Shown piece by piece: positions 2,350-37,365 of a stretch of 38,691 nucleotides of DNA. The first letter of the stretch is position 1; each line of letters starts with the position of its first letter. The position numbers and the translations under genes were made by a program. The stretch comes from a virus, in the IMG/VR virus record IMGVR_UViG_3300029305_002455; one strand, written 5' to 3'. A model generated the notes under the pieces. It did not search any database and had not been told where the DNA came from. It saw only the letters and a program-made list of their open reading frames with translations.

Positions 2350-2700
2350 ATGATTAAAGATTACAAATTCAATTTAGAAGTAGAAGGTAAAGAATATCAA
2401 CTTGTATTTAACTTAAATGTAATGCAAGAAATACAAGAAGAATACGGAACACTTGAAAAATGGGGAGAACTAACAGATGGTAAATCTGGAGAAGTAAATG
2501 TTAAGGCTTTAATATTTGGTTTAACTCATATGATTAATGAAGCAATAGATATGAGAAATGATGAAGAAGGAACAAGGGATCTGTTATTAACTCAAAAGCA
2601 AGTTGGAAGATTAATCACTAAAGCAGGTGTTGAAAATAGTGCTAAAAAATTAAATGAAGCAATAGTTGAAAGTACAAAAAGTGATGCAAAAAACGAATAA
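2350..2700 (+). CDS. Tail assembly chaperone (gpG-like)
   Basis: 116 aa; immediately upstream of tape measure; ends with slippery A AAA AAC. Confidence 0.6.
   Translation: MIKDYKFNLEVEGKEYQLVFNLNVMQEIQEEYGTLEKWGELTDGKSGEVNVKALIFGLTHMINEAIDMRNDEEGTRDLLLTQKQVGRLITKAGVENSAKKLNEAIVESTKSDAKNE
2688..2694 (+). other. -1 programmed ribosomal frameshift heptamer A AAA AAC
   Basis: In zero frame as gcA AAA AAC GAA TAA. The -1 frame is open from 2694 through 2930 with no stop and no good independent start. Confidence 0.55.
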
Positions 2701-2930
2701 TCCAAGATGAAGTGGAAGATGAACCTGTTGACTTCACTTGGTTTTATTTTGTAGGCAGGAATAAGTTAGGCTTCACTTTTAAAGAAGTTGGAAGGCTTAC
2801 ATTAAGAACATTTAATAAAATGTATCAACTTTATAAAAATGATTTTGATATGGAAATGAGATTGAAAAATTCAAATACTACATATCAAGAATTAGAAAAA
2901 AAACAAATAGAAGATGAAGAATGGTTTTAA
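2694..2930 (+). CDS. Frameshift extension of the tail chaperone (gpGT-like fusion 2350..2694 + 2694..2930)
   Basis: -1 frame ORF overlapping the end of the G-like gene; conserved G/GT architecture of long-tailed phages. Confidence 0.5.
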   Translation, partial: RIIQDEVEDEPVDFTWFYFVGRNKLGFTFKEVGRLTLRTFNKMYQLYKNDFDMEMRLKNSNTTYQELEKKQIEDEEWF

Positions 2931-2945
2931 GGAAGGAGGGAGAAT

Positions 2946-5372
2946 ATGTCAAGTAGTTATGGTGGAACGATAAAATTAACAGGTGAAACCGAATATAAAA
3001 AAGCCTTAAAAGATATTACTTCAAATTTAAAATTAATGTCTAGTGAAATGAAATTGACTAATACTGCATTTGCTAATGGAGATAAATCTGTTAGGCAGAC
3101 AAAAACTTCTTATGATAATATGAATAAATCAATAGAAGAACAAAAAGAAAAAATTAGTAAATTAAGAACTGCATTAGCACAGGCAGAAAAAGAGTATGGA
3201 AGTAATAATGAAAAAGTTAAGACTTTCAAAACTCAATTAAATAATGCAGAAAATCAGTTGAAGCAAATGGAAGCCCAAACAGATAAATCTACTAAAGAAT
3301 TGAAAGAAATGAGAGATGGCTTTGATGATGCAGGACAAGGAGCAGTTAAGTTTGGCGATTTACTTAAAGCCAATTTAATGAGTGAAGCAATAATAGGTGG
3401 AGTAAAAGCATTAGGAAGTGCAATCAAGACTATTGGTTCAGCATTTGTTGATATTGGTAAACAAGCATTAGATAGTTATGCAGATTATGAACAATTAGTA
3501 GGTGGTGTTGAAACACTATTTGGTACTGGTGGAATGTCAATAGAAGAATATGCACAATCAGTTGGGAAAAGTGTTGATGAAGTAAAAGATAAATATAATC
3601 AACTATATGAAGCACAAGAAAATGTACTTAATGATGCAAATTTTGCTTATGAAACTGCAGGATTAAGTGCTAATGAATATATGGAAACAGTTACTTCATT
3701 TAGTGCTAGTTTGATACAAAGTTTAGAAGGAGATACTTTAAAAGCATCAGATGTTGCAAGGAGAGCAATTATAGATATGTCAGATAATGCAAATAAAATG
3801 GGTACTGATATGTCAATGATCCAAAATGCTTATCAAGGTTTTGCAAAGCAGAATTATACAATGCTAGATAACTTGAAATTAGGTTATGGTGGTACAAAAA
3901 CAGAAATGGAAAGACTTATTTATGATGCTTCACAAATGACAGAAATTCAAAAGAAATTAGGAATTGAAGTAGATGCAAGTAGTATGTCATTTGGTAATGT
4001 TGTAAATGCAATAAGTGTTATGCAAGAAAGTATGGGTATAGCAGGAACAACCTCAAAAGAAGCAAGTACAACAATAACTGGTTCATTAAATATGATGAAA
4101 TCTGCTTGGCAAAATATGTTGACAGAACTAGCAAGTGGTGGACACGAAAGTGGTTTTCAACATACATTAGACCTTTTAGTAGAAAGTGTTTTAACATTTG
4201 CAGATAATGTAATTCCAATAGTAGATAATATAATAACTGGTATAGTAAATTTAATAGTAGGGTTAGCAGGTAAGTTAGTTGAACATATGCCAACAATGTT
4301 GGAAACAGGTATGAGCCTATTACAAACTTTGATGGATGGTATGACTTCAATGTTACCACAATTATTGCCGATAGTATTGCAAATAGTAAATAATTTAACA
4401 ACATTTATAGTTCAAAATTTACCGACAATAATTAATGCAGGTGTTCAAATGTTGATTTCTATAATTAATGGTATTGTAAGTGCATTGCCACAATTAATAC
4501 CTGCAATAATAGAAATAGTAAAAACTTTGGTAACAGTAATAACAGAAAACTTGCCTACAATAATAGAAGCAGGTGTAGAAATACTATTTGCTTTAATGGA
4601 AGGTATTGCAGAAGCATTGCCAGATTTAGTTCCACAAATAGTTAAAGTTATCATTAAAATAATGGAAATATTCAATGAAAACTTTGATAAATTCTTGATG
4701 CTAGGAATTAAAGTTATTTTAGGATTAATAGAAGGTCTTATAAAATCAATACCAGATATATTAAAAAATCTACCAACGATTATTATGGCGATTATTAATT
4801 TCTTTACATTGAGTAAGTTCTTAACTTTAGGTAAAACAATAATAAAAGGTTTAGTTAATGGATTAACAACATCAGTACCGAACTTGTTAAAAGAAATACC
4901 GAAGTTAATTGGTAAGATAATAAATAGTTTCAAAAATGGTGGTTGGTCTGGAGTTGGACAAGATATTATAAAAGGGATCTGTAATGGTTTTTCTTCTATG
5001 GGTGATTTTATATGGAAGGCTATTAAAAAGGTAGGAAATTCAATGCTTGATGGCATTAAAAGTTTCTTTGGAATTAAATCACCTTCAAGACTTATGAAAG
5101 ACCAAGTAGGAACTTATTTGGCAGAAGGTATTGGAGTAGGTTTTGAAGATACAATGACAGATGTTTCAAGAGATATGGCAGATGCAATTCCTACTAATTT
5201 TGATACAAGTATAAATGCAAATTTAAAAGGAAATTCAAGTTCAAGTATATCAAACTATGATAATATGGTTAATGCTTTCAAAAAGGCTTTATCAGAAATG
5301 AAAGTAGAAATGGATGGCAGACAAATGGGAATATTTGTAGAAGATACAATGGAAAGGTTGGTGTATTCATAA
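2946..5372 (+). CDS. Tape measure protein
   Basis: 808 aa; coiled-coil N-terminus, long hydrophobic repeat core, position after G/GT. Confidence 0.85.
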   Translation: MSSSYGGTIKLTGETEYKKALKDITSNLKLMSSEMKLTNTAFANGDKSVRQTKTSYDNMNKSIEEQKEKISKLRTALAQAEKEYGSNNEKVKTFKTQLNNAENQLKQMEAQTDKSTKELKEMRDGFDDAGQGAVKFGDLLKANLMSEAIIGGVKALGSAIKTIGSAFVDIGKQALDSYADYEQLVGGVETLFGTGGMSIEEYAQSVGKSVDEVKDKYNQLYEAQENVLNDANFAYETAGLSANEYMETVTSFSASLIQSLEGDTLKASDVARRAIIDMSDNANKMGTDMSMIQNAYQGFAKQNYTMLDNLKLGYGGTKTEMERLIYDASQMTEIQKKLGIEVDASSMSFGNVVNAISVMQESMGIAGTTSKEASTTITGSLNMMKSAWQNMLTELASGGHESGFQHTLDLLVESVLTFADNVIPIVDNIITGIVNLIVGLAGKLVEHMPTMLETGMSLLQTLMDGMTSMLPQLLPIVLQIVNNLTTFIVQNLPTIINAGVQMLISIINGIVSALPQLIPAIIEIVKTLVTVITENLPTIIEAGVEILFALMEGIAEALPDLVPQIVKVIIKIMEIFNENFDKFLMLGIKVILGLIEGLIKSIPDILKNLPTIIMAIINFFTLSKFLTLGKTIIKGLVNGLTTSVPNLLKEIPKLIGKIINSFKNGGWSGVGQDIIKGICNGFSSMGDFIWKAIKKVGNSMLDGIKSFFGIKSPSRLMKDQVGTYLAEGIGVGFEDTMTDVSRDMADAIPTNFDTSINANLKGNSSSSISNYDNMVNAFKKALSEMKVEMDGRQMGIFVEDTMERLVYS

Positions 5373-6067
5373 TGAGCCATATAATTTGGAAAGATATTGA
5401 TAGTAGAACTATTAAAGGTTTAATTATAAGTGAATTGCCACCTATAACAAAGCCTAAAATGAGAGTTCAAGAAACAAAAATTGATGGAGTTGATGGTTCT
5501 ATAATAGAAGAACTAGGTTATGAAAGTTATGATAAGTCAATGAAAATAGGTCTATCTTATAATTATGATATAGATGAAATTGTTAAATATTTTTCTGGAG
5601 AAAGTAATATTGTATTTAGTAATGAGCCAGATAAATATTATAAAGTAAGAATACTGGACCAAATAGACTATGAAAGATTATTGAGATTTAAAGAAGCAAT
5701 AGTTAAATTTAGAGTTCAGCCTTTTAAATATCTTTATCAAGAGCATAAGTTAGTTTTTGATAATTTAGAAGATAGCATTATAGTTGTAAATAAAGGGTTA
5801 GAAAATTCAAAGCCTATTATAACTATTACAGGAACAGGAACTATTGAATTTAGATTAGAAGATATGTCTATATTCAAATATACATTTCCAGAAGGAGAAG
5901 ATACAGTAATAATTGATAGTGAAAAGCAAGATGCTTATTTAGGTTCAGAATTAAGAAATAGAAATATGATAGGTGAATTTCCTGTATTCAAAAGTGGTAA
6001 AAATAAAATTTCTTTTGATGGAACTATTACCAAATTAGAAGTAGAACCAAAAAGCAGATGGATTTAA
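5372..6067 (+). CDS. Distal tail protein (Dit)
   Basis: 231 aa; TAATG coupling to TMP; Sipho_tail-like N-terminus (...IKGLIISELPPITKPKMRVQETKIDGVDGS...). Confidence 0.65.
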   Translation: MSHIIWKDIDSRTIKGLIISELPPITKPKMRVQETKIDGVDGSIIEELGYESYDKSMKIGLSYNYDIDEIVKYFSGESNIVFSNEPDKYYKVRILDQIDYERLLRFKEAIVKFRVQPFKYLYQEHKLVFDNLEDSIIVVNKGLENSKPIITITGTGTIEFRLEDMSIFKYTFPEGEDTVIIDSEKQDAYLGSELRNRNMIGEFPVFKSGKNKISFDGTITKLEVEPKSRWI

Positions 6068-6079
6068 AGGAGGAATAAT

Positions 6080-6415
6080 ATGAAGAAAGTTTATGAAATT
6101 ACTAGAGGTAACACAAAAGGAATTGAAATAGTAATAAAAGATGGTGAAACTTCAGTAGAAGTTGATGAATTATATTTTACTGTTAAAGAAGATTGTTGTG
6201 TTGAAGAAGTAATATTTCAAAAAAAATTAAGTGAAGAAATCATTTATAAAGATGGTGCTTATTATATAGTTATAAGCCCAGATGATACAAGTTCATTAGA
6301 ATATGGAAGATATGTATATGATATTAAATTTATAAAAGATGGCATCAAGAAAACTATTGAAAAAGGAATATTTTTAGTATCAGAAGAAGTAACATTCGCT
6401 TGTAATGAGGTGTAG
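6080..6415 (+). CDS. Small beta-rich protein, paralog of 13144..13473
   Basis: 111 aa. About one third identical to the 13144 product, with shared RG-T, FQK-L, G-YY-V-I-P-DT and C-terminal EVTF-CNEV. Confidence 0.5.
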   Translation: MKKVYEITRGNTKGIEIVIKDGETSVEVDELYFTVKEDCCVEEVIFQKKLSEEIIYKDGAYYIVISPDDTSSLEYGRYVYDIKFIKDGIKKTIEKGIFLVSEEVTFACNEV

Positions 6416-6417
6416 TT

Positions 6418-8043
6418 ATGGAAGCAATTATAGATAAATTAAAAAACTTCAATTATTCAGTATCAAAAAAATGTATAGGCTATAAAAACAAAAAAGCAGA
6501 AGGTACAAGCATAAGTTTGAACGATAGTGTAGGTTGCAAAATGTCTAGTTTTAAATTAGATGGTAGAAGTATTCAAGAAACTAGAAGTGGTAAGAACTTG
6601 TTACCATTTGCTAATCAAGATTTTACAGTAAAAGGAGTACGATTTTATGCTATTGATGGAGATTTATATTTAGATGGTACAAGTACTGGAGATATAAGTT
6701 CTAATAGTGAAGAATACAAAAATAATTTCTCATTTACGCTTCCTGCTGGAACATATCATTTTGAAAGAGGAACAGGTGCTAGTACTCCTACTGATAGCCA
6801 AATAGCGACTTATATAAGAAAATATGATGATAATGAAACTTTAATAACAAATGCTGGTACTTTCACATTAACAGAAAAAACGAAACTATATATAGGATTT
6901 TATTCGTTTATGAACCAAATTTTTAACAATAGAAAAATGAATGCTCAATTAGAACAAGGAGATACTGCAACCGAATACGAAACTTGTGGTGCTAGTCCTA
7001 GTCCAGATTATCCAAGTGAAATAGAAGTAATTGAAGATAATGTAGAAGTTAATGTTGTTGGGAAGAATTTAGCCAATTTAACCAGACCTACATTTACGAG
7101 TAGTGGAGTAACATTTACAAATAATGGAGATGGAACATATACATTGAACGGAACTTGTACAAATGGTACAGACAATAATTTATTAGTAAATGATAATATT
7201 AAAATTCATAAGAATAAATTTTATAAGTTATCTATAAAAGTTCTTGGTGGAACTAAAAATAATATAATAGCATTGTCAAATATAAGATTGGTTGTTGGTG
7301 AAACTAAAACATGGAATTGGTTAAATTCAGATGCTCCCGCAAAATCTTCATTAGAAGATGGTTATATTGATTATGTAAATTATTTTATTAATAAAGGTGC
7401 AGTATTTAATGATTACAGAATTGGAATACAATTAGAAATGGTTGATAATGAAAATTCTTTAGCAACTGAATTTGTACCATATCAAGAAAATGCAATAGAG
7501 TTGATTTTACCAGAACCAATATGTAGTTTACCAAATGGAGTAAAAGATGAAATATACATTAAAGATGGTAAAGCATATTTAAAAAAGAATGTTGGTAGAG
7601 TTGATTTAGGTACTCTTGTATGGGCATATAAATCAGATTATGGTTTCAGTTCTACAATAACAGGTGCTAAAGGACCAGTGAATAATAACACCAAAGCAAA
7701 TGCAATGTGTGATATTTACACAGTATATACAGCAAATAATTGTTATGGGCTAACTGGTTCAATATCAAGTGGAATATCTATAACTATGAGTGGTACGGGT
7801 GTTATTGTAAGAGAAACTAATTACACTGATGTCGAAACATTTACAAATGCAATGAGTGGTTATTATTTTTATTATGAATTAACAGAACCTTATGAAATTG
7901 ATTTAGGAGCAGTAACAATGCTTAAAACATATAAAAATGTATCTAACATATTTAATAGTAAAGATACTAATATGAATATTGAATATTGTTCTAATGAAAT
8001 AGTGGATGTAGAAAAATATAGTATTGAAGTAAAGGAAATTTAG
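6418..8043 (+). CDS. Putative receptor-binding / carbohydrate-binding tail protein
   Basis: 541 aa; two internally similar segments each beginning GKNL... (jelly-roll/CBM-like); lies between Dit and Tal. Confidence 0.4.
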   Translation: MEAIIDKLKNFNYSVSKKCIGYKNKKAEGTSISLNDSVGCKMSSFKLDGRSIQETRSGKNLLPFANQDFTVKGVRFYAIDGDLYLDGTSTGDISSNSEEYKNNFSFTLPAGTYHFERGTGASTPTDSQIATYIRKYDDNETLITNAGTFTLTEKTKLYIGFYSFMNQIFNNRKMNAQLEQGDTATEYETCGASPSPDYPSEIEVIEDNVEVNVVGKNLANLTRPTFTSSGVTFTNNGDGTYTLNGTCTNGTDNNLLVNDNIKIHKNKFYKLSIKVLGGTKNNIIALSNIRLVVGETKTWNWLNSDAPAKSSLEDGYIDYVNYFINKGAVFNDYRIGIQLEMVDNENSLATEFVPYQENAIELILPEPICSLPNGVKDEIYIKDGKAYLKKNVGRVDLGTLVWAYKSDYGFSSTITGAKGPVNNNTKANAMCDIYTVYTANNCYGLTGSISSGISITMSGTGVIVRETNYTDVETFTNAMSGYYFYYELTEPYEIDLGAVTMLKTYKNVSNIFNSKDTNMNIEYCSNEIVDVEKYSIEVKEI

Positions 8044-8044
8044 T

Positions 8045-9694
8045 ATGATTAAAGTTTATGATAGTACAGAAACTTTATTTGAAACAAATGGAATTAAAAC
8101 TTTGCATCCATTAATTGCAGAAATAACGAAAAGAGATAACTCGGATTATTATATAGAGTTAAGGGATCTAGTTGATAATTTAAAGTATTATCAAAAAGGA
8201 ATGATAGTCCGAGTTCCTACTCCTTGGGGAGTTCAAGGTTTTAGATGCGATAACCCTAAAATAAAGAATAATAGAGTAGAATGTACTGCTTGGCATTTAA
8301 GTTATGATGCTAAAAATTACATTATTAAAGATAGTTATTCAGTAGATAAAAATTGTAATGATGCTTTGGACCATTTTAATAGTGCTACTGATAGAAAAAG
8401 TCCATTTACTACTATTAGTGATATAACAATTATAAAGAGTGCAAGAATGGTAAGGAAATCTTTATATGAAGTATATGGAGAATTAGTTAATGACTATTAT
8501 GGAGGTCATTGGTATAGAGATAATTTTACTTTAGGAATAAAGTCAAGTATTGGAGAAGATAGGGGAGTAGTATTAGCACAAAATAAGAATATAACCAATA
8601 TAGAAACATCTGAAAATTGGGATGATGTATGCACTAAAATATTGCCATATACAACTGATGGAGAAGTTGCAATATTACTTGATAATACTTATGTAGAATT
8701 AGAAGAAGAATTGTATGATATACCATACACAAAGGTTGTTAAATTTGAAAATGAATTAGACAAAGAAAATTATGCAACAGAAGAAGAATATATTTCTGCA
8801 TCAAAAGAATGGTTGTTAGCACAAGCAAATGCTTATCTGCAAGAAAATAAATTGCCTAAAATAAATTATTCTGTATCTGCAAAAATAGATAATGTTTCAG
8901 ATGTAGGAGATGTTATATATGTAAAGCATCCTAAATGTAAGGTAGATATTCAAACAAGTGTAATTGGAGTAGTTTATGATGCAAATAGAAATAAATATAT
9001 TAAGATAGAATTTGGTAATTTTAAGAACGAAATAAAGAATTTAAGTCAAAAAATTACTGCTGATGCAAATAAATATTCAGATGAAAAAATTTCAGAAAAT
9101 AAAGTGTTATTAGAAAAAGAATTAGAAGAAGCAACTGCAAAAATCAATTCAGTATTGGGATCTAGTTTTGTAATTAATAATGGGAATGAAATTTTAGTAG
9201 TAGATAGGTTACCAAAAGAAGAAGCGATATATTGTATAAAAATAAATAGTGCAGGAATTGGTTTTAGTTCTACTGGAATAAATGGACCATTTAATAGTGC
9301 TTGGACCATAGATGGCACTTTAAATATGCAAAATATAAATGTAATTAATTTTACTGCATCATTAATAAAAGGTGGAGTATTAAAGTTAGGTGGAGTTGAT
9401 AATTCAAGTGGAACATTTGAATTATATGATAATGCTAATAATTTAATGGCATTAATGGACAAGACAGGTTTAACAGTTTATGCAACAAATGGTGATTATG
9501 TAAGATTAAATGCAGTAGAAGGTTTTGCAGGTTATGATAAAAACAATAACAAAGTTTATTGGGCAGATGGCAATGTTTTTCATATGGAAAATGCAGAAAT
9601 TGAAAACATAGCAAAATTTGCAGGAATGATACAAATGGTTCCAGTATCAACAAGTAGCAATAAAGGAATAGGCTTTGTTGCTATTAGTAGTTAG
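8045..9694 (+). CDS. Tail-associated protein (Tal; phage minor structural protein N-terminal family)
   Basis: 549 aa; MIKVYDSTETLFETNGIKTLHPLIAEI... is the typical N-terminus of this family. Confidence 0.65.
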   Translation: MIKVYDSTETLFETNGIKTLHPLIAEITKRDNSDYYIELRDLVDNLKYYQKGMIVRVPTPWGVQGFRCDNPKIKNNRVECTAWHLSYDAKNYIIKDSYSVDKNCNDALDHFNSATDRKSPFTTISDITIIKSARMVRKSLYEVYGELVNDYYGGHWYRDNFTLGIKSSIGEDRGVVLAQNKNITNIETSENWDDVCTKILPYTTDGEVAILLDNTYVELEEELYDIPYTKVVKFENELDKENYATEEEYISASKEWLLAQANAYLQENKLPKINYSVSAKIDNVSDVGDVIYVKHPKCKVDIQTSVIGVVYDANRNKYIKIEFGNFKNEIKNLSQKITADANKYSDEKISENKVLLEKELEEATAKINSVLGSSFVINNGNEILVVDRLPKEEAIYCIKINSAGIGFSSTGINGPFNSAWTIDGTLNMQNINVINFTASLIKGGVLKLGGVDNSSGTFELYDNANNLMALMDKTGLTVYATNGDYVRLNAVEGFAGYDKNNNKVYWADGNVFHMENAEIENIAKFAGMIQMVPVSTSSNKGIGFVAISS

Positions 9695-9705
9695 GAGGTG
9701 AAGAT

Positions 9706-12162: not shown

Positions 12163-12173
12163 GAGGTTATAGT

Positions 12174-12467: not shown

Positions 12468-12478
12468 GTGGTGATAAA

Positions 12479-12742: not shown

Positions 12743-12756
12743 AGAATGAATTGATT

Positions 12757-26894: not shown

Positions 26895-26900
26895 AGTAAA

Positions 26901-26971: not shown

Positions 26972-27002
26972 ATAGAGAATAGCAAAGAAAATGGAGGATT
27001 GT

Positions 27003-28262: not shown

Positions 28263-28265
28263 AAG

Positions 28266-29674: not shown

Positions 29675-29722
29675 ATAATTAACATAAAGCAACAAAAAAT
29701 AACGAAAAACATTCAAAAATAT

Positions 29723-29751
29723 TTGACAAATGTTTCCAAAAAGTTTACGAT
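29723..29751 (+). promoter_or_regulatory. Promoter P_B: TTGACA, 17-nt spacer, TACGAT
   Basis: Consensus -35 with exact 17-nt spacer. Leader has a 9-bp hairpin TTGTAATAA/TTATTACAA (29756..29782) and SD AAAAGGAGAG. Confidence 0.6.
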
Positions 29752-29810
29752 ATCGTTGTAATAAAACAACAAATTATTACAAAAAGTTACAAGAAAAGGA
29801 GAGTTGTCAA

Positions 29811-30023
29811 ATGAGAAAATTATTTATTGAAGGTAGAAGAAATGGTTATGACCCAGAACAATGTGGAGGAACAATGACAGTAAGGGATCTGATAGATTTC
29901 TTAAAAGAATTTGATGAGGACACAGAAGTATATTTAAAAAATGACAATGGTTATACTTATGGGAACATAGACAGATGGAGTTTTGAAGAAGATGAAGAAG
30001 AAGGTGAAGATAATGAGTTTTAG
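29811..30023 (+). CDS. Small acidic protein (70 aa)
   Basis: ATG 29811 after SD AAAGGAGAG (the track start 29730 lies in the promoter); C-terminal EEDEEEGEDNEF. Confidence 0.5.
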   Translation: MRKLFIEGRRNGYDPEQCGGTMTVRDLIDFLKEFDEDTEVYLKNDNGYTYGNIDRWSFEEDEEEGEDNEF

Positions 30024-30231
30024 AGAAGAAAACAAATTATTAGAAGCCTTTGGATGCAAAGAAGCTAAATATGATTTTTTAGTAAATAACTATTGCATCA
30101 AATTTATCTATAATGACAAGAAGTTTATAGCAGAACATATCTTAAATATATATGGAGAAGCAGTAGACTTCTGGGAGTTAGAAGATAAAAGATTTGATAC
30201 ATTAGAAGAACTATTAAATTATATCAAGTAA
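30013..30231 (+). CDS. Small hypothetical protein (72 aa)
   Basis: ATG 30013 with SD AAGGTGA; overlaps the upstream gene by 11 nt. Confidence 0.45.
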   Translation: MSFREENKLLEAFGCKEAKYDFLVNNYCIKFIYNDKKFIAEHILNIYGEAVDFWELEDKRFDTLEELLNYIK

Positions 30232-30256
30232 GTGAAAGGGATCTGTTCCCTTTCCA

Positions 30257-30275
30257 ACTTGAATTTAATTCATAA
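30257..30275. promoter_or_regulatory. Operator site 4: ACTTGAATTTAATTCATAA
   Basis: Follows a hairpin (30234..30254). Extra half-site ACTTGAA 29 nt downstream (30286..30292), abutting the -35 of P_C. Confidence 0.55.
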
Positions 30276-30300
30276 AAATTAAAAAACTTGAAAATTAATC

Positions 30301-30329
30301 TTTACAAAGAAAGTTAAAAAGATTACGAT
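30301..30329 (+). promoter_or_regulatory. Promoter P_C: TTTACA, 17-nt spacer, TACGAT
   Basis: Same -10, same downstream (C)GCTTGTAATAAA box and same SD AAAAGGAGAGTTG as P_B. Confidence 0.6.
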
Positions 30330-30368
30330 ACGCTTGTAATAAATAATAAATAAAAGGAGAGTTGCTTT

Positions 30369-30776
30369 ATGGAAAGAAAAGAAATGAAAAGAGAAGCATT
30401 AGTAAGGATGCAAATGTTACATCTAAATGAGGATGCAATCAAAGATTTCCAAGAAAATGAAAAGGCTTGGAAGAGTGAAACTAATATGGGTATCTTATAT
30501 TGGTTGAATGAAGAAGAAGAAAAGATGGTAAAAGAATTTGAAGAAAGTACAGGAGGACTTGTTTATCATCTAATTCATAACAGATATGAAGAAATTGGTG
30601 AATGTTACTCAATATTCTATGTAAGTAAAGAAGAAAGCGAATGGGAACTTGATAGATATGATATCAATGATTTTTACCCATTTGTATATGTAAAGAACAT
30701 AGATGATGAATATTGTTCAGAATTTGGACACATAGGAATTAGACCAGTAAATAGTGGTTTAGTAAGGGAGTGTTAG
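30369..30776 (+). CDS. Hypothetical protein upstream of ArdA
   Basis: 135 aa; SD GGAGAG 8 nt upstream. Confidence 0.5.
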   Translation: MERKEMKREALVRMQMLHLNEDAIKDFQENEKAWKSETNMGILYWLNEEEEKMVKEFEESTGGLVYHLIHNRYEEIGECYSIFYVSKEESEWELDRYDINDFYPFVYVKNIDDEYCSEFGHIGIRPVNSGLVREC

Positions 30777-30778
30777 TT

Positions 30779-31309
30779 ATGGAACTATTAAATGTAGCAG
30801 TTACTAATTTAGGAAGATACAATGAAGGTTATTTAATCTTTGAATGGTTGAAGTTACCTGCAACAGAAGAAGAAATTCAAGAATGTTTCAAAAAGATAGG
30901 TTTAAATGAACAATATGAAGAATATTTCATTACAGATTATGAAAGTGATGTTGGATTGAAATGTAGTGAATATTCAAATCTAGAAGAATTGAATGAAATG
31001 GTCCAAGAATTAGAAGATGTAACTAAAGGAGATTATGACAAGTTAGAAGCAGTAATTGAAAGAGATTATATGGGAGATAACTTGCAACACATTATGGAAG
31101 TAATGGAAGATGATGATGTTTATTTCTATAAAGGTTATACTGCTGAAGAATATGAACAATATTATGTTAGAGAATGTTATGATTTAAGTTTTATGAAAAA
31201 TGGTTGGTTATCAAATTACATTACAATAGATTATGAAGCAATGGCAGAAGAAGATAATCAAATATATGAAACAGATAAAGGAGTATTAGTAGATAGAAAT
31301 TATTGTTAA
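30779..31309 (+). CDS. ardA: ArdA anti-restriction protein (DNA mimic)
   Basis: 176 aa from ATG 30779; ...VTNLGRYNEGYLIFEWLKLPATEEEI...IGLNEQYEEYFITDYESD... parallels Tn916 Orf18/ArdA; very acidic. Confidence 0.8.
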   Translation: MELLNVAVTNLGRYNEGYLIFEWLKLPATEEEIQECFKKIGLNEQYEEYFITDYESDVGLKCSEYSNLEELNEMVQELEDVTKGDYDKLEAVIERDYMGDNLQHIMEVMEDDDVYFYKGYTAEEYEQYYVRECYDLSFMKNGWLSNYITIDYEAMAEEDNQIYETDKGVLVDRNYC

Positions 31310-31329
31310 TAAAAAAGGAGAAATGCAAT

Positions 31330-32001
31330 ATGGCTTATGAATTAATAACCAAGAATGGACACAATATGTATGATATGGCATCAATGTTACAAAAAGCAAT
31401 AAGAAGAAATGATGTAGAAAGAGCAAGTTATGCAGGTTACCAATTATTTGGTAACTTCCATACTTACTTATGGAAACGATTGGTTGTAATATCAGCAGAA
31501 GATTGTTATGGAATAATAACAAAAGAAATAATAGCATTAAAGTTAGCAGATGATGAAGTAAACAAAGGAAAGAAAGGTTATAACAAAGACCCATTATTTG
31601 TAGCCAAAGCAATAGTTCTGTTATGTATGGCAAGAAAGAATAGGGATGCTTGTTATGTTGCTTGTAACTTTATGCTACCAGATAAAATACTAGATGAAGA
31701 TGAAATAGAACACATAGATATTTCAAAAGTAGAATTAAAAGGAGATATACCAGATTGGGTGTTTGATGTTCATACATTGAAAGGAAAGATAAATGGAAAG
31801 ACAGATTTAGATATGACAATATCAGAACAAAGAGCATTAACACCACATCAAGTAGGATTATTTGATGACGCAAGTTGGGAACCATACTATACAATGGCAA
31901 GAAGTCAAGGGAAATGTAATGACAGGGAATGGGCAAAATTCCAACAATTCAAACAAGGCAAAGAAGCCAATCCACAACAAGTAAACATAATAGAAGATTA
32001 A
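31330..32001 (+). CDS. Stand-alone MgsA/RarA C-terminal-domain-like protein (no AAA+ module)
   Basis: 223 aa from ATG 31330 (SD AAGGAG 9 nt upstream). ...MYDMASMLQKAIRRNDVERASYA..., ...KRLVVISAEDCYG..., ...AKAIVLLCMARKNRDACY... align with the MgsA_C motifs HYD-ISA-HKS-RGSD, RRL-I-ASEDIG, A-IYLA-APKSN. Confidence 0.55.
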   Translation: MAYELITKNGHNMYDMASMLQKAIRRNDVERASYAGYQLFGNFHTYLWKRLVVISAEDCYGIITKEIIALKLADDEVNKGKKGYNKDPLFVAKAIVLLCMARKNRDACYVACNFMLPDKILDEDEIEHIDISKVELKGDIPDWVFDVHTLKGKINGKTDLDMTISEQRALTPHQVGLFDDASWEPYYTMARSQGKCNDREWAKFQQFKQGKEANPQQVNIIED

Positions 32002-32025
32002 AGGACCTATAAGGTCCTTTTTTTA
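32001..32025 (+). terminator. Rho-independent terminator
   Basis: Stem AAGGACC/GGTCCTT, 5-nt loop, T7. Confidence 0.7.
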
Positions 32026-32043
32026 TGAAGGAGGTGATGTTCT

Positions 32044-32367
32044 ATTTCTGGTAATACTAATAATCTAAAGCCTGTTCAAAGCAAGGAAGAAGCAAGAATA
32101 AGGGGTAGGAATGGTGGAATTAAAAGTGGAGAAGTAAGAAGGCAGAAAAAATTAATGCGAGAAACTCTGGAAGAACTAATGAATTTACCATTAAAAGATG
32201 AAGATTTAGAAGATATTACATTTTTAGATGGTATAGGTAAGAAGAACATCACAGTTCAACAAGCCTTGTTAGTTAAGCAGATACAGAAAGCATTAAATGG
32301 AGAAAATGATAGTTTTAAAATTATAAAGGAAATTCTCAATGATAAAAATGAGATAAGGTTTAAATGA
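32044..32367 (+). CDS. Conserved phage protein with basic N-terminal GG-x-x-SGE-x-RR motif; probable non-canonical (ATT) start
   Basis: Frame is open from 32038. Conserved-looking N-terminus ...GNTNNLKPVQSKEEARIRGRNGGIKSGEVRRQKK lies upstream of the first ATG (32155). SD AAGGAGG (32028..32034) is 9 nt before ATT 32044. Confidence 0.4.
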   Translation: MSGNTNNLKPVQSKEEARIRGRNGGIKSGEVRRQKKLMRETLEELMNLPLKDEDLEDITFLDGIGKKNITVQQALLVKQIQKALNGENDSFKIIKEILNDKNEIRFK

Positions 32368-32744
32368 TGATGAAAAAAAGTTGTAAGTATTGTGGATTAA
32401 TACACGAAGTAGGAATAACTTGTTCCAGAAAACCAAAGAAGAATTATAAGTTAAAGTATAAAGAAAAAGATAAATTCAGAAGTTCATATATATGGCAACT
32501 GAAAAGGGAAGAAATAAAGAAAAGGGATCTGTATCTATGTAGAATATGTAGAGATAAAATAACCAATGGAGAAATAAAGTACAATTATGAAGATTTATCA
32601 GTTCATCATATTGTACCATTAGAAATTGATTATTCATTAAGATTAGAGAATGATAATTTAATTACATTATGCGATAGGCATCATAAAGAAGCAGAAGATG
32701 GAACTATTAAAGCCGATTATTTAAAAAGACTAATAACAAGATAA
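32364..32744 (+). CDS. HNH endonuclease (packaging-associated)
   Basis: 126 aa; CKYCG...C, ...LSVHHIVPL...NDNLITLCDRHH...; sits just before cos/TerS as in HK97-like cos phages. Confidence 0.8.
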   Translation: MMMKKSCKYCGLIHEVGITCSRKPKKNYKLKYKEKDKFRSSYIWQLKREEIKKRDLYLCRICRDKITNGEIKYNYEDLSVHHIVPLEIDYSLRLENDNLITLCDRHHKEAEDGTIKADYLKRLITR

Positions 32745-33110
32745 TATACGAGCCTGTATTACGAGATACGGAGGGCGTGTACGGAGAACGAGTATAATAC
32801 GAGAATATATATGCGATATATATGATTAACTCGGTGTACTCGATATATTACAAACCATAATAACAATAACAATAATAAAAAAATAATTTTAAAACCATAA
32901 AGCAAAGATAAAGGAAATGATATATAGATATGATAATAGAAATAATAATATTAATAATTTCATTTATAATATTAAACTTATTAATAATAATATCAAAACA
33001 TAAAGAAGAAATATGGGAAGAAATATACAAGATGTTGAAGTAGCATCCCCCCTACCCAAAAGATGAAAATGGTGTAGTTGATACCACACCCACACCAACA
33101 CTTCTTTATA
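32745..33110. other. Candidate cos / terminase-recognition region
   Basis: Three parts: a GC-enriched block with 6 direct (T/A)ACG(A/G)AG words (32747..32803) and inverted CTCG words (32829..32843); an extremely AT-rich tract of about 200 bp; and a C-rich block GCATCCCCCCTACCC...CCACACCCACACC (33044..33100). Confidence 0.45.
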
Positions 33111-33151
33111 CACAAAATTCCCTAAAAAAGAAATTGGAAAGGAGAATGATA

Positions 33152-33595
33152 ATGGGAAGAACTGCAAAATCAGTATCAGTAACAAGTAAACACTTAACCA
33201 AAGATGAAATATCAGAAAGAGAAAAGACAGAAGAAGTCTTAAAAGGAAGTGGAGATAAATTAATTGCTCCAGATTATTTAACAGAGGAACAGGTAGAACT
33301 GTTCTATTTTATTATAGATGAACTTAAAGAAAGTAATATACTAGGCAACCTAGATGTATTTGTTTTAAGTCAAGCATCAATATGTATAGATAGATTAAAT
33401 AAACTGGAAGAATTGATTAATGAAGATGAAAGTTACTTGATGAATAATAGTTTTATGTCTTGTAAAAGACAATATAGTGCAGATTTCTTTAAATGTTGTC
33501 AAGAGTTATGCTTAAGTCCCCAAAGCAGAGCAAAGATAAGTCTTGCAAATATGAATAAGAAAGAAGATGATCCATTATCTTTTATAAATGATTAA
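33152..33595 (+). CDS. terS: Terminase small subunit (P27 family-like)
   Basis: 147 aa from ATG 33152 (SD AAAGGAG 7 nt upstream); MGRTAKSVSV...LIAPDYLTEEQVELFYFIIDEL... Confidence 0.7.
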   Translation: MGRTAKSVSVTSKHLTKDEISEREKTEEVLKGSGDKLIAPDYLTEEQVELFYFIIDELKESNILGNLDVFVLSQASICIDRLNKLEELINEDESYLMNNSFMSCKRQYSADFFKCCQELCLSPQSRAKISLANMNKKEDDPLSFIND

Positions 33596-35273
33596 GCAAC
33601 ATCCAAGTTATGAATATGTAGTACAGGCAGTAAAAGGGGAGAAGCCAGTACCTAAATATGTTAAGAAGCAATGTAAAGAAATAAAAAAAATATGTGATGG
33701 AAAATCTGAAAAGTATGTAATAGATACTGCCAGATTAGAAAAGATAGATAAGTTATTAAAAATATTAAAGATGCCTAAAGGATTAAAAGTAAATCAAACT
33801 ATTTATGAAAGTCTTGCAGGTTTTCAATGGTTATTGATAGTAGCAACTCTATGTGTGGTCCATAAATCAGATATGAATAAAAGAAGATATGAAACAGTAT
33901 TGTTAGAAATATGCAGAAAGAATGGTAAGACATTTATTATTGGATTAATATTTGTTTTGCTATTTTTTTTAGAACCGAAATTTAGTAAGTTCTATTCAGT
34001 TGCTCCAGATGGTTCTTTATCAAGGGAGATAAAAGGAGCAATAGAAGAAATAATAAAATTTAATCCAGCAGTATTGCCATTAGAAGGACCATATAAGAAA
34101 TTTAATATAAGAAGGGATGATATATTTTGTTATGCAACTGATAGTGATTATGTTCCACTATCATATAGTACAAGTAGGCTAGATGGTAAGTTGCCATCAG
34201 TATTCTGTGCAGATGAAGTTGGTGCATTGCCTACCAGTTACCCAATAGAAGCAATGAGGTCTGGACAATTAACTATTTTAAATAAGTTAGGTTGTATCAT
34301 CAGCACAAAGTACCCAACATTTGATAATCCATTAGAAGATGAAGTATTGTATGCAAAAAAGATACTGGATGGAAAGATAGAAGATGAAAAAGTATTTGCA
34401 TTATTATATGAGCCAGATGATACAAAGAACTGGACCACAAATGATGAAATATTAAAGCAAGGTAATCCATTAGCAGTAGAAGTTGAAGAAATATGGAATG
34501 ACTTGATAGATAAAAGAACAAGAGCAATAGAAGTTGAAAGTGCAAGAGAAAATTTCTTGTGTAAGCATTGCAATATTATTTATCAAGGTTTAGGAACAGA
34601 AAGTTTTGTTCCAATTAGTGCAGTTAAGGAATGTAAGAAAGAAGAAGAAATAAGTTTTGCAGGAAAACAGATATATGTAGGAGTTGACCTAGCAATGACA
34701 AATGATAACTGTGCAGTTTCTATATGCTATGAAGAAGATGGTAGAATCTATGCAGATAGTTTTGCATTTATTCCAGATGGAAGAATAGATGAAAAGAATA
34801 AATTTGAAAAGATAGATTATAGGAGATACATAAAAGATGGTAAATGTATTCCTTGTGGAGATTTAACAGTTTCCTATAAGACAATAGAAGATTTTGTGTT
34901 TAGCCTAGAAGAAAAATATGGATGTAAGATAGTAAGTTTAGGTTATGACAGATATAATGCTTTATCATCAGCACAAAAATGGGCAGAAAAGTACACAGTA
35001 GTTGAAATAAGGCAACATAGTGATACATTGCATCCACCAACAAAGTTATTGTATGAAAAGATACTGAATAAAGAGTTTTGCTATAATGAAAATCAACTTT
35101 TAGAGATTAACTTTGAAAATGCAAAGTGTACTTATGATACTAACTTGAATAAGTACATTACAAAGAAGAAATCAAGTGGAAAGGTTGATATGGTTATGTC
35201 ATTGATTAATGCAGTATATCTAATGCAACAAGACATAATATTTGAAACAGGATTTATAGCACAAACCATTTAG
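33588..35273 (+). CDS. terL: Terminase large subunit
   Basis: 561 aa; Walker-A-like ...CRKNGKTF...; nuclease-half acidic motifs; position. Confidence 0.85.
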   Translation: MIKQHPSYEYVVQAVKGEKPVPKYVKKQCKEIKKICDGKSEKYVIDTARLEKIDKLLKILKMPKGLKVNQTIYESLAGFQWLLIVATLCVVHKSDMNKRRYETVLLEICRKNGKTFIIGLIFVLLFFLEPKFSKFYSVAPDGSLSREIKGAIEEIIKFNPAVLPLEGPYKKFNIRRDDIFCYATDSDYVPLSYSTSRLDGKLPSVFCADEVGALPTSYPIEAMRSGQLTILNKLGCIISTKYPTFDNPLEDEVLYAKKILDGKIEDEKVFALLYEPDDTKNWTTNDEILKQGNPLAVEVEEIWNDLIDKRTRAIEVESARENFLCKHCNIIYQGLGTESFVPISAVKECKKEEEISFAGKQIYVGVDLAMTNDNCAVSICYEEDGRIYADSFAFIPDGRIDEKNKFEKIDYRRYIKDGKCIPCGDLTVSYKTIEDFVFSLEEKYGCKIVSLGYDRYNALSSAQKWAEKYTVVEIRQHSDTLHPPTKLLYEKILNKEFCYNENQLLEINFENAKCTYDTNLNKYITKKKSSGKVDMVMSLINAVYLMQQDIIFETGFIAQTI

Positions 35274-35288
35274 GAAGGAGGTGAAAAG

Positions 35289-36593
35289 ATGGGAATATTT
35301 AATAGAAAATCAAAAAGAGAAACTGTTATTGATACTAATAGTATATCTGACCCACTACTAAAAGCATTGATAGGAGATACTGCAATAGATAGAGCATCAG
35401 CTATGGAAATGCCAGTAGTAAGTGGATGTGTTGATTTGATATGTAATACATTTGCAATGATACCTTTTAAACTTTATAAAGAAGAAATGAAGGATGGCAA
35501 AAAAATTACAAAAGAAGTAGATGATATAAGAGTTAGCATCATAAATGATGATACTACTGATAAGTTAGATGGCTTCCAGTTCAAGAAAGCAATGTGTGAA
35601 GATTATCTAATGGGTAAAGGTGGTTATGCTTATATACATAAGATAAAAAATGATTTTAAAGGTTTATTTTATGTTAAAGATAAACATATTACGATAAATA
35701 TTAACAATGATCCTATTTTCAAAAGTTATAACATTCTGGTAAATGCAAAACCTTATAAAGATTTTCAATTTATAAAGTTATTAAGAAATACCAAAGATGG
35801 TGCTTCTGGAATAGGTTTAACTTCTGAAATATCAAGAGCATTGAAAACTGCATTTAAAAGATTATTGTATGATTATGATTTAGCAGTAACAGGTGGAAGC
35901 AGAAAAGGATTTCTTAAAACTCAAAAGAAGTTAGATGAAGCAGGAGTTAAGAAGTTAAAAGATGCTTGGGAACAATATTACAATGGAACTGCTAATACAG
36001 TTGTATTGAATGAAGGAATGGAGTTTCAAGAAGCAAGTAATACTTCAAGAGAAAATGAAATTGATGCTAAAAACAAAACTTTCATAACTGAAATGAAAGA
36101 TATATTCCATATAGGAACAAGTTATGATGATTTTATAAAAAATGCAATCATGCCGATAGCAACTGCATTTGCAACTGCTTTGAATAGAGATTTCTTACTT
36201 GAAAAAGAAAAGAAGTCTTATTATTTTGCTCCAGATACAAAAGAATTGTTTAAAGGTTCATTAAAAGAAAGATATGAAGCATATCAAATTGCTATTAAAA
36301 ATGGCTTCAAAACTAGAAATGAAATTAGATATATGGAAGATGATGATGCCATTAAAGGTTTAGATATGATTAGTTTAGGCCTTGGAGATGTACTTTTAAA
36401 TGCTGAAACAGGAGAAATTTATACACCAAATACAAATTCTTTAGTAAAAATGGGTGAAAAATCAGCCATAAACGAGCCAAATACAGAGGATTTAGAACAA
36501 AATAATACAAATACCCTAGAAAAAGAAAAAGATGCTGAAAATGGCGAAAAAAAGCCAAAGAAAGGGGGTGTTAAAGATGAAGGTAGAAGTTAG
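35289..36593 (+). CDS. Portal protein (HK97 family)
   Basis: 434 aa; position after TerL; typical size and acidic C-terminus. Confidence 0.8.
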   Translation: MGIFNRKSKRETVIDTNSISDPLLKALIGDTAIDRASAMEMPVVSGCVDLICNTFAMIPFKLYKEEMKDGKKITKEVDDIRVSIINDDTTDKLDGFQFKKAMCEDYLMGKGGYAYIHKIKNDFKGLFYVKDKHITININNDPIFKSYNILVNAKPYKDFQFIKLLRNTKDGASGIGLTSEISRALKTAFKRLLYDYDLAVTGGSRKGFLKTQKKLDEAGVKKLKDAWEQYYNGTANTVVLNEGMEFQEASNTSRENEIDAKNKTFITEMKDIFHIGTSYDDFIKNAIMPIATAFATALNRDFLLEKEKKSYYFAPDTKELFKGSLKERYEAYQIAIKNGFKTRNEIRYMEDDDAIKGLDMISLGLGDVLLNAETGEIYTPNTNSLVKMGEKSAINEPNTEDLEQNNTNTLEKEKDAENGEKKPKKGGVKDEGRS

Positions 36594-37365
36594 AGAAGAT
36601 AGTGTCTTTATAACTGGTTATGTAAATGCAATAGAAAGATATTCAAAACCAATTAGAGAAAGTCTAAGGGGGAAAATCAGAACATTTGTTGAAAGAATTA
36701 AAGCAGGAGTATTTCAAACTGCATTAAAAAGAAACGACAATGTTTTAGTTCTATTAAATCATAATCACGATAGAGTTTTGGCAAATACTAAAGATGGTTC
36801 TGCCAAACTAGAAGAAGATAATATTGGATTAAGAGCAGAAGTAACTATTACTGATAAGGAAGTAGTAGAAAAAGCAAGAAACAATCAGTTAGTTGGTTGG
36901 AGTTTTGGTTTTTATGCTAATGCTGATGAAATGGGATCTGAAGGAGAAACAGAAACAAGAACTGTTACTGATTTAGATTTATTTGAAGTATCAATATTAG
37001 ATGATACAAAAAGTCCTGCTTATTATGGTACAAGCATAGAAGCAAGAGCAGAAGGAGAAAAAGTGCTTGAATATAGAGCAACTGTTGAAGAAATAAAAGA
37101 AATAGAAGAAGATGCTATGGAAAAGCACGAAGAAGTTTATAAAATAACTGATGAACTACATAAACAAATAGAAGTAGAAAAAGAAGAAGCAAAATTAGAA
37201 TTGCTTATCGAAAAAGTTGTTAATAAAGTTCTTGAAAAATTATCTGGTACTAGGGAAGAAGAAACAACACCAGTAGAAACACTAGTTGAAGAAGAACAAG
37301 TGGATGAAGAAGAAAGGTCCACAATAGACTATTCTGAATTTGAAGAAAGAATAGCAAAATTATAG
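36577..37365 (+). CDS. Prohead protease (HK97 family, S78) with acidic coiled-coil C-terminal extension
   Basis: 262 aa from ATG 36577 (SD AAGGGGGTG); ...VLLNHNHDRVLANTKDGSAKLEEDNIGLR...; C-terminal Glu-rich helix (scaffold-like). Confidence 0.75.
   Translation: MKVEVREDSVFITGYVNAIERYSKPIRESLRGKIRTFVERIKAGVFQTALKRNDNVLVLLNHNHDRVLANTKDGSAKLEEDNIGLRAEVTITDKEVVEKARNNQLVGWSFGFYANADEMGSEGETETRTVTDLDLFEVSILDDTKSPAYYGTSIEARAEGEKVLEYRATVEEIKEIEEDAMEKHEEVYKITDELHKQIEVEKEEAKLELLIEKVVNKVLEKLSGTREEETTPVETLVEEEQVDEEERSTIDYSEFEERIAKL

Follow-up and report, generated by a model that had tools for sequence, protein, structure and literature searches.

We analyzed IMG/VR virus record IMGVR_UViG_3300029305_002455, a stretch of 38,691 nucleotides (the window, always meant at its full length), for a short asymmetric word, WGGGATCTR, that recurs along one of its strands. 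An exact direct terminal repeat of 127 bp identifies the window as a complete circular assembly of about 38,564 bp (~38.56 kb), and the phage is a temperate siphovirus of a low-GC, AT-rich gut clade. Its genes are arranged in the order head-tail joining and tail, lysis, integrase and cI, early genes, and packaging and head genes (terS, terL, portal, and major capsid). Nearly all of them are encoded on the + strand, the exceptions being the serine integrase (15527-17062) and a cI-like repressor, both on the − strand. The early genes include those for SSB, Erf, a PD-(D/E)XK exonuclease, NinB, a resolvase, a replication initiator, and an ArpU-type late activator; they are followed by a block encoding ParB-like, PIG-L, WbqC, and TAGT-like glycosyltransferase proteins, then by ArdA and HNH. 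Base composition shows a strong strand skew (A 16469, T 11266, G 7109, C 3847; i.e. 28% GC and a G/C ratio of 1.85).

An exact recount of the core GGGATCT gave 12 occurrences on the + strand and none on the − strand (Table 1), the same figures as in a preliminary description of this DNA, with no − strand copy overlooked. All 12 copies fit WGGGATCTR, seven of them read AGGGATCTG, and their density corresponds to one per 3.2 kb. Expected numbers for GGGATCT were 0.86 (+) and 0.37 (−) under a mononucleotide model and 0.42 (+) and 0.52 (−) under an order-2 Markov model. Dinucleotide shuffles gave 1.32 for the two strands combined (never more than 6 in any of 100 shuffles) and 0.58 for the 9-mer WGGGATCTR. 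Randomization preserving the encoded proteins did not reproduce the count either: synonymous-codon shuffles averaged 2.0 copies, with a maximum of 6 in 2000. When codons were resampled from a usage table from which motif codons had been excluded, 2.71 copies were expected, two of these being unresampled copies, i.e. about 0.7 for the ten copies located in + strand genes. The over-representation, for which a rough expectation of about one copy had been given earlier, was thus upheld against 0.4-2 expected copies under every null, amounting to a 6-30-fold enrichment across all models. In an unbiased k-mer scan of the genome, GGGATCT was the top over-represented 7-mer (P = 4 × 10−14) and GGGATCTG the top over-represented 8-mer (9 observed vs 0.08 expected). 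Among approximately 90 comparison loci of at least 15 kb, just one contained a more extreme word. The same phage was recovered from several JGI and ENA metagenomes as clonal copies (at least 99.97% identical), which offered no useful polymorphism; the word copies are identical across these independent assemblies and hence not an assembly artefact. None of the 12 copies falls inside the 127-bp terminal repeat. One-strand words were also seen at two other loci, L033 (ACCCAAGC, 11 observed vs 0.13 expected) and L070 (TTATCAAA, 13 observed vs 0.70 expected).

The word is not bound to one peptide, as had been stated from the outset. It is read in three frames (five copies as R/W-D-L, four as G-S, and one as G-I), and it also occurs once antisense in the integrase gene and once in an intergenic hairpin. 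Its use in genes brings in codons that were rightly described as rare, namely AGG (63 occurrences vs 338 of AGA) and CTG (27 of 963 Leu codons). A control word, GCAACTGC, displayed a different behavior. It was found 8 times against 0.32 expected, all on the + strand (at 9131, 10813, 19589, 23248, 27924, 29333, 36159, and 36171), but is always read in the frame GCA-ACT-GCW (Ala-Thr-Ala); locked to one frame, its excess is an ordinary codon/tripeptide effect. A peptide or codon cause of WGGGATCTR was rejected on the strength of its three frames, the antisense and intergenic copies, the codon-aware nulls, and the contrast with GCAACTGC. Beyond the 9-10-mer, the flanks of the copies are unlike one another and fold into no common secondary structure, only the copy at 30238 lying in a hairpin; a repeat-element artefact and a shared secondary structure were rejected as causes on these grounds. 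With such a skewed composition, and with all genes but two on one strand, chance, codon bias, or a repeated peptide or element might be thought to generate the pattern. The absence of any shuffle above 6 copies, the variety of reading contexts and flanks, and the example of a real codon effect refute this explanation, whose probability we consider negligible.

With respect to genome organization, the copies show no consistent place relative to gene starts, and their spacing is not significantly regular (P = 0.07). Promoter-like matches between 26300 and 33200 were fewer than in shuffles (34 vs a mean of 47), and none was tied to a copy of the word. A search of the published literature for the word yielded nothing relevant.

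Table 1. Copies of the word, plain GGATC sites, and other features of the window, together with the word sites of relative L151. Positions of copies are those of the 9-mer WGGGATCTR; the site names used in the text (e.g. 9157) are the starts of GGGATCT, 1 nt later.
Feature	Sequence	Position	Strand	Site (GGGATCT start)	Context
Word copy	AGGGATCTG	2575..2583	+	2576	AGG-GAT-CTG (R-D-L), gene 2350-2700
Word copy	AGGGATCTG	4973..4981	+	4974	AAA-GGG-ATC-TGT (K-G-I-C), tape-measure gene
Word copy	AGGGATCTA	8162..8170	+	8163	AGG-GAT-CTA (R-D-L), tail gene 8045-9694
Word copy	TGGGATCTA	9156..9164	+	9157	TTG-GGA-TCT (L-G-S), tail gene 8045-9694
Word copy	AGGGATCTG	15139..15147	+	15140	AAG-GGA-TCT (K-G-S), endolysin gene
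Word copy	AGGGATCTG	16925..16933	+	16926	Antisense in − strand serine-integrase gene; integrase frame CAG-ATC-CCT (Q-I-P), rare codons
Word copy	TGGGATCTG	19560..19568	+	19561	TTG-GGA-TCT (L-G-S), erf gene
Word copy	TGGGATCTA	27303..27311	+	27304	TGG-GAT-CTA (W-D-L), ParB-like gene
Word copy	AGGGATCTG	29883..29891	+	29884	R-D-L, window-specific gene 29730-30023
Word copy	AGGGATCTG	30237..30245	+	30238	Intergenic, across stem and loop of hairpin
Word copy	AGGGATCTG	32523..32531	+	32524	AGG-GAT-CTG-TAT (R-D-L-Y), HNH gene, ~0.5 kb inside predicted right genome end
Word copy	TGGGATCTG	36932..36940	+	36933	ATG-GGA-TCT (M-G-S), gene 36532-37365
Sole + strand GGATC outside the word	AGGATCA	26151..26157	+		
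Eleven plain GGATC sites	WGATCCW (as read on + strand)	538..35714	−		GATC starts 539, 3818, 10177, 13333, 21336, 22152, 24044, 26637, 28149, 33569, 35709
Direct terminal repeat, exact, 127 bp		1..127 = 38565..38691			
Recombination module		18804..22577	+		SSB, Erf, RecE-like fragment, PD-(D/E)XK exonuclease, SSB, NinB, Holliday-junction resolvase
Predicted terminase recognition/cleavage (cos/pac) region		32745..33133			Between HNH and terS; from gene order and atypical composition
L151 word sites	GTGGATC	555, 3622, 5441, 12904, 15126, 17460, 20286	top		

To follow the history of the copies, homologous positions were compared in about 12 relatives, retrieved via homologues of TerL, tail protein, and integrase (L125-L131, L151-L159, and L234-L237). 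Judged from these alignments, several copies are recent in the lineage of the window and derived from multiple substitutions, with 2-4 substitutions for each gain, amino-acid changes included. The sites compared are (i) 2576, where L157 and L159 have AAT-GAT-CCT (N-D-P), which marks the copy as derived, its origin having flipped a − strand GGATC; (ii) 8163, where the copy is common to L154, and the other relatives have AGA-GAT-ATA (L130 and L159), AGA-GAT-ACT (L157), or AGA-GAT-ACA (L151); (iii) 9157, where four relatives encode L-G-N (TTA-GGA-AAT in L130 and L159, TTA-GGT-AAT in L157, and TTG-GGT-AAT in L154), and the TTG-GGA-TCT of the window differs from TTA-GGA-AAT by three substitutions that also change N to S; (iv) 16926, where the integrase frame reads CCT-ATA-CCA in L234 (82% identical integrase) and GCT-ATA-GAA in L130, so that this copy, too, must be derived; (v) 27304, where the copy is kept in L125 and L126 has the synonymous TGG-GAT-TTA; and (vi) 36933, where the copy is common to L125, L128 has GTA-GGA-ACT, and other relatives have non-GATC variants. 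The HNH copy is the most conserved of the 12. It is kept in L125, L126, and L127, and L128 encodes the same peptide by the common codons AGA-GAT-TTA-TAT, synonymous rare codons being the sole difference between window and L128.

The intergenic copy lies in a hairpin (30213-30269; ΔG −13 kcal/mol, z −6.6) that is not followed by a T-run. At the corresponding position of L125, which was compared unfolded, the flanking GAAAGGGAT…GTTCC bases are kept and the loop differs (GGGATTAAG); the word at 30238 probably arose by a change in the loop of a pre-existing hairpin. One-mismatch neighbors of the word lacking GATC are somewhat depleted in the window (5 observed vs 10.4 expected). Very-short-patch-type mutational drive was rejected, since the gains required several different substitutions. 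Taken together, the word has arisen again and again, and recently, through selection on the DNA itself that prevailed over codon usage as well as protein sequence.

Enrichment was absent in related phages. The relatives contain 0-1 copies per 10-22 kb, with the highest number in L125 (3 in 21.7 kb), and over a 21.6-kb region L157 has none vs eight in the window. One of the L125 copies lies in the ParB-like gene, whose protein is 96% identical to that of the window and whose DNA around the site is 92-93% identical, consistent with a recent exchange. When the 15-mer conserved at the HNH copy was searched against IMG/VR, 74 unrelated chance matches were returned. The 9-bp word is under recent, intense, and lineage-specific positive selection on one strand.

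The preliminary description had considered a recognition word for the modification module or for its ParB-like protein. This module (26991-32001) comprises the ParB-like, PIG-L, WbqC, and TAGT-like glycosyltransferase block followed by a conserved 232-aa protein (w31303, 31303-32001). ParB-like, glycosyltransferase, and 232-aa proteins co-occur in 76-79 of 80 IMG/VR loci, and the sugar-tailoring genes are swapped between phages, e.g. for a DegT aminotransferase and an epimerase/dehydratase in L126 or a UDP-glucose dehydrogenase-like gene in L151. The module may serve DNA or surface glycosylation; no hydroxymethylase or TET gene was seen with it. Across the 80 IMG/VR phages carrying the module, the word was not enriched (52 observed vs 68 expected forward, and 35 vs 53 reverse). 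Furthermore, the ParB-like and glycosyltransferase proteins of L125 are 96-97% identical to those of the window, yet L125 has only its three copies. The ParB-like/PIG-L/WbqC/glycosyltransferase module was hence rejected as partner of the word, and this part of the earlier proposal was abandoned.

The tetranucleotide GATC, contained in every copy, belongs to a group of palindromes that the window avoids. Observed/expected counts were 2/87 for ACGT, 3/87 for CATG, 8/87 for AGCT, 13/87 for TCGA, and 24/87 for GATC (24 observed vs 55-88 expected). GC-only palindromes were depleted as well (CCGG, CGCG, and GCGC did not occur; CpG observed/expected 0.24), and TGCA was in excess (223/87). All 24 GATC sites of the window are located inside GGATC, consisting of the 12 word copies, 11 WGATCCW, and one AGGATCA. 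As described earlier, the sites outside the word are mostly Asp-Pro codon pairs (8 of 12 are GAT-CCW). Under a codon-aware null, plain WGGATCW was observed once vs 9.3 expected on the + strand and 11 times vs 10.5 expected on the − strand. Codon choice displayed the same tendency: Gly-Ser pairs are written GGT-TCN 19 times, with GGA-TCN confined to the word, and in all five xxG-Asp-Cxx cases outside the word, Asp is encoded by GAC.

Confinement of GATC to GGATC extends to the clade, where 96 of 99 sites lie inside GGATC/GATCC vs 27% expected by composition (24/24 in the window, 13/13 in L125, 7/7 in L126, 5/5 in L130, 5/6 in L131, 4/4 in L153, 8/9 in L154, 12/12 in L157, 11/12 in L159, and 7/7 in L234), and where GGATC itself is near its expected frequency. 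L128 and L129 instead retain GATCG alone. Dam-type N6-methyladenine (m6A) in GATC blocks MboI/DpnII and AlwI. Plausibly, a host methylase of EacI/AlwI type marks progeny DNA at GGATC and thereby blocks an enzyme of DpnII/MboI type; no methyltransferase gene was found in the window. EacI/M.EacI is a GGATC-specific m6A system, and such systems exist in Firmicutes (PMC13224479). A literature search on GGATC-dependent survival of GATC gave nothing relevant. The set of avoided words varies even between close relatives, CATG being spared in L125, L126, and L131 and AGCT in L151 and L154-L156, which implies fast tracking of different host restriction repertoires. Both the GATC-in-GGATC rule and this variation may be useful for studies of restriction-modification pressure on phages. 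In its early region L234, whose integrase is the closest relative, carries a C5 cytosine DNA methylase gene (PF00145, 2322-3611) that the window lacks. Residual GATCs with common flanks were noted at further loci, i.e. TGATCA in L090-L108, AGATCG in L051, and GGATCT, 9 to 0 between strands, in L069.

These observations bear on whether the word is a by-product of restriction escape, GGGATCT being a tolerated GATC context (e.g. through an overlapping methylase) and its orientation resulting from Type III or Type ISP escape, as the preliminary description had also considered. The massive avoidance of palindromes is in line with such a history, and so are the single orientation of the asymmetric word (12 vs 0) and the nearly one-way plain GGATC (11 − vs 1 +). 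Flank-biased residual GATCs are also common in other GATC-poor phages, although none of these packs them into one long word as the window does. Tolerance, however, predicts a neutral 0.4-2 copies rather than 12, and the 12 + strand copies stand head-to-head with 11 − strand GGATC sites, unless the enzyme ignores the latter. The explanation is largely refuted by the copies built de novo from GATC-free sequences through several substitutions, some of them non-synonymous. Type III escape could explain orientation but not a 6-30-fold excess arising from directed substitutions, and we consider this origin very unlikely.

A second lineage provided an independent view of the GGATC core. L151, whose TerL is 69% identical to that of the window and whose GC content is 33%, has a top-strand word of its own. 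Here, GTGGATCA was observed 6 times vs 0.29 expected, and GTGGATC 7 times on the top and never on the bottom strand, with the consensus WGTGGATCAAGT. The L151 word is read in two frames, occurs in addition at one site between genes, and brings in GTG, a rare Val codon. L236, a relative of L151, has one GATC in 12 kb and none of the L151 copies. The word could be a polar signal of GATC/GGATC methylation biology instead of Chi, with an asymmetric GGATC-core word read on one strand. Possible actions would be a strand-specific nick (as in T5-type interruptions), a nick on the unmethylated strand of a hemimethylated site, or protection of one strand; which sequence is recognized in each lineage would depend on the flanks (G…T in the window, GT…A in L151). 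That two independent lineages gained different top-strand words sharing GGATC argues for this explanation, as do the clade-wide confinement of GATC, the existence of GGATC-specific m6A systems in Firmicutes, and the depletion of plain GGATC on the + strand at normal − strand levels, a strand-specific effect on the same core. On the other hand, its mechanism is speculative and no enzyme emerged as a candidate: a methyltransferase gene is lacking in the window, whose sole nuclease-like genes, HNH and exonuclease, are common to relatives without the word. Nor are we aware of a reported system in which additional copies of such a GGATC-core site are favored. On balance, we regard a signal of this kind as rather unlikely. 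A combined form seems somewhat more doubtful still, in which a system linked to GATC/GGATC methylation would read GGATC-core words strand-specifically, possibly as Chi-like or as nick/protection signals built around a methylated GGATC, and would shift its specificity between lineages. The window and L151 (WGTGGATCAAGT) would then be tuned to different reader alleles, and plain GGATC would be detrimental when located on the strand of the word. If true, it would represent a previously undescribed coupling of restriction-methylation context with a polar DNA signal.

How much polarity the 12:0 count conveys depends on coding bias. The count itself stands, but its weight as evidence for strict co-orientation is reduced with nearly all genes on the + strand. 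Codon-aware nulls expect the reverse word AGATCCC merely 0.04-0.09 times on the coding strand; because it is so rarely expected, + strand genes dominate, and C-rich codons are rare, 12:0 overstates polarity. The two copies outside + strand genes, antisense in the integrase and intergenic, are both + oriented, and the former was built against the codon preferences of the integrase gene. Its creation there indicates that the strand rule follows the genome and not transcription. In addition, the present supply of one-mismatch neighbors is 5 vs 5 for the two orientations, and at the trinucleotide level both are about equally accessible. Together with the asymmetry of plain GGATC, these two copies and the equal accessibility point to a strand-specific process.

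The same evidence can be set against a functionless orientation, as would be expected if the word were the binding site of a lineage-specific phage protein and its G-rich form simply the one that the coding strand accommodates more readily. Phage regulators often bind at scattered sites, enrichment is lineage-specific, and the window has accessory open reading frames (ORFs) absent from L125. Candidates would be the ArpU-type late activator and the product of a small ORF (within 24296-26376 or at 29730-30023). In + strand genes, moreover, the codon-aware null expects approximately 8-50 times more GGGATCT than AGATCCC. The + orientation of the integrase and intergenic copies speaks against a binding site of this sort, and so does the + strand depletion of plain GGATC, which is polar under a codon-aware null. 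Ten of the 12 copies fall within genes but at no fixed distance from gene starts, no DNA-binding domain was detectable in the window-specific ORFs, and the ParB-like protein is excluded as specificity factor. Such a binding site therefore appears unlikely.

The reading we favor, tentatively and at somewhat short of even confidence, is that WGGGATCTR may be a Chi-like polar signal for a host enzyme of AddAB/RecBCD type, accumulated under strong positive selection. In a linear genome or rolling-circle concatemer, the host helicase-nuclease, which in a low-GC Gram-positive host would be of AddAB/RexAB type, would enter at the free right-hand end, just left of cos/pac (~33.0 kb), travel leftward, and meet the word from its 3′ side on the top strand. 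Upon recognition it would switch from degradation to recombination or protection, and each additional copy in the correct orientation would thus improve survival and raise the number of concatemers. Followed 5′ to 3′, the strand bearing all copies runs terS, terL, head, and tail; relative to the terminase genes, this top-strand location would correspond to the active orientation of Chi for entry from a right end placed by prediction, an agreement confounded with the coding strand. The most conserved copy, in the HNH gene, lies about 0.5 kb from this predicted end. Three elements of this picture are inferred: which enzyme reads the word, where exactly the genome ends, and that the word is also the host's own Chi. 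The region at 32745-33133 is probably where terminase binds and cleaves, as suggested by gene order and by an atypical composition, with clustered TACGAG/ACGGAG repeats between HNH and terS and a C-rich tract at 33040-33100 (CATCCCCCCTACCC…CCACACCCACACC) unusual for this genome. No RecBCD/AddAB inhibitor was recognizable among the early genes of the window, which we count in favor of a Chi-like role. Among the possibilities raised in the preliminary description, a host Chi-like signal fits best with respect to enrichment, DNA-level selection, and the precedent of Chi-rich phages; the phage's own recombination functions fit it less well.

Several findings weigh against a Chi-like role. (i) The phage has its own recombination module (Erf, PD-(D/E)XK exonuclease, two SSBs, NinB, and resolvase), with one copy of the word inside erf itself. 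(ii) L153, L157, L159, and L234 have 0-1 copies, yet display the avoidance signature of the window (CATG, AGCT, ACGT, and TCGA depleted), by which they probably share its host pool. (iii) L157 and L234 also carry homologues of the recombination genes and still show no enrichment. (iv) The word contains GATC, which is otherwise strongly counter-selected. (v) The core shared by window and L151 suggests a tie to GATC/GGATC biology rather than an arbitrary Chi sequence. (vi) None of the models offered here accounts for the loss of plain GGATC from the + strand only. (vii) Among + strand genes, 12:0 is largely predicted by coding bias. (viii) Clustering toward the right end, measured as mean distance, is not significant (P = 0.22; 4 of 12 copies in the last 5.7 kb). 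(ix) No host or prophage junction was found by genome scan, metagenome scan, exact-protein look-ups, or contigs of homologues.

As for these host searches, a scan of GTDB genomes with the integrase gave relatives of at most 49% identity (in a metagenome-assembled genome (MAG) of Thomasclavelia and in MAGs labeled uncultured Bacilli, Tenericutes, Lachnospiraceae, and others), and the word was absent from all of them. Contigs of phage alone were what the metagenome scan and the exact-protein look-ups produced. Among the matches listed, integrase homologues (at least 58% identity) and tail-protein homologues were, with one exception, on contigs of about 40 kb or shorter; likewise among the matches listed, the closest TerL homologues (at least 69% identical) were on contigs of about 40 kb or shorter, and distant ones (66-67%) reached 139 kb. 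No integrated copy was detected among more than 100 relatives, even though the phage encodes a serine integrase and a repressor.

The latter result also concerns the possibility that the word is a segregation signal of the host, of the FtsK-orienting polar sequence (KOPS) or SpoIIIE recognition sequence (SRS) type, acquired during prophage residence. A polar word with a G-rich 5′ half in a temperate phage with an integrase would suit such an origin. Besides the lack of integrated copies, the amino-acid changes that gains have cost in the window argue against it. Firmicute KOPS/SRS words are purine runs, e.g. GAGAAGGG, unlike WGGGATCTR, and the KOPS of L. lactis is reportedly GAAGAAG, again a purine run. 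The main selection reported on such words in prophages acts against inverted orientation and not for gain; we know of no strong selection for their gain in phages. We therefore hold a segregation signal to be highly improbable.

A few further features of the window deserve mention. An ArdA anti-restriction gene (30770-31309), of a kind active against Type I systems, and a gene for a MazG-like NTP pyrophosphohydrolase (25878-26177) are found among the accessory early genes. Rfam and tRNA scans of the window gave no hits. A GenBank phage search revealed no close relative, the sole match being 47 bp in the tape-measure gene.

Whatever its mechanism, the word offers an unusually clean case of DNA-word selection overriding codon usage and protein sequence. 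If it is the Chi of an uncultured low-GC gut Firmicute, a new Chi sequence would have been read directly from a phage genome. It could then also be used as a marker to link phage and host, since genomes in which WGGGATCTR is enriched and skewed would be candidate hosts. Moreover, the stocking of Chi by phages, recently described for Gram-negative lambdoid phages, would be known from Gram-positive gut phages as well, including one with recombination genes of its own.

Comparison with known systems shows partial correspondence in each case. Protection by an overlapping methylase would explain why GATC survives solely in GGATC at about the expected GGATC frequency; it provides tolerance only and does not explain why GGGATCTR is in excess or why plain GGATC is lost from one strand, and the phage has no methylase gene. 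In T7, the uniform orientation of EcoP15I sites (CAGCAG) is read as escape from Type III restriction, which needs head-to-head sites. Both phages have an asymmetric site in one orientation and genes that run one way, but the T7 case needs no excess of sites, whereas the word of the window is 6-30-fold over-represented and actively created. The nick sites of T5-like and phiKMV-like phages resemble it as a dispersed short consensus on one strand of virion DNA; unlike these, the window, read from sequence alone, has no lineage-specific nickase candidate, and we know of no report of directed gains of such sites. KOPS and SRS are likewise polar, skewed short words, read by a DNA translocase, but they act on chromosomes and their Firmicute forms are purine runs.

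Described Chi sequences comprise GCTGGTGG, GCTGGCGC, AGCGG, GCGCGTG, and GAAGCGG; WGGGATCTR is unlike all of them. Chi-rich phages include the E. coli phages LLS and P1 and the Pseudomonas phage MD8 (Zheng et al. 2025, Genome Res., PMC12315714); Chi-enriched phages are also treated by Bobay et al. 2013, as far as cited there. In lambda-like phages the active orientation of Chi is on the top strand relative to cos, with the enzyme entering from the right end. Phage LLS has 23 Chi sites, 20 of them in active orientation, Chi being its commonest octamer, and lambda has none. Chi density is one per 4.6 kb in E. coli and one per 1.86 kb in LLS. Well-studied lambdoid phages related to the Chi-rich ones lack Chi, and Chi sites have been proposed to come and go with the shuffling of modules between phages. 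Chi-rich lambdoid phages typically have no recombination module of their own, with rare exceptions that have both (all PMC12315714). The window phage differs from LLS, P1, and MD8 in having such a module, in the non-significant clustering of its word at the right end, and in a word that holds a tetranucleotide otherwise purged from the genome. The resemblance lies in a short asymmetric word that exceeds its expectation more than any other oligomer of the genome, has nearly all its copies on the top strand as defined from the terminase end, occurs once per 1-3 kb in excess of codon usage, and is lacking in related phages.

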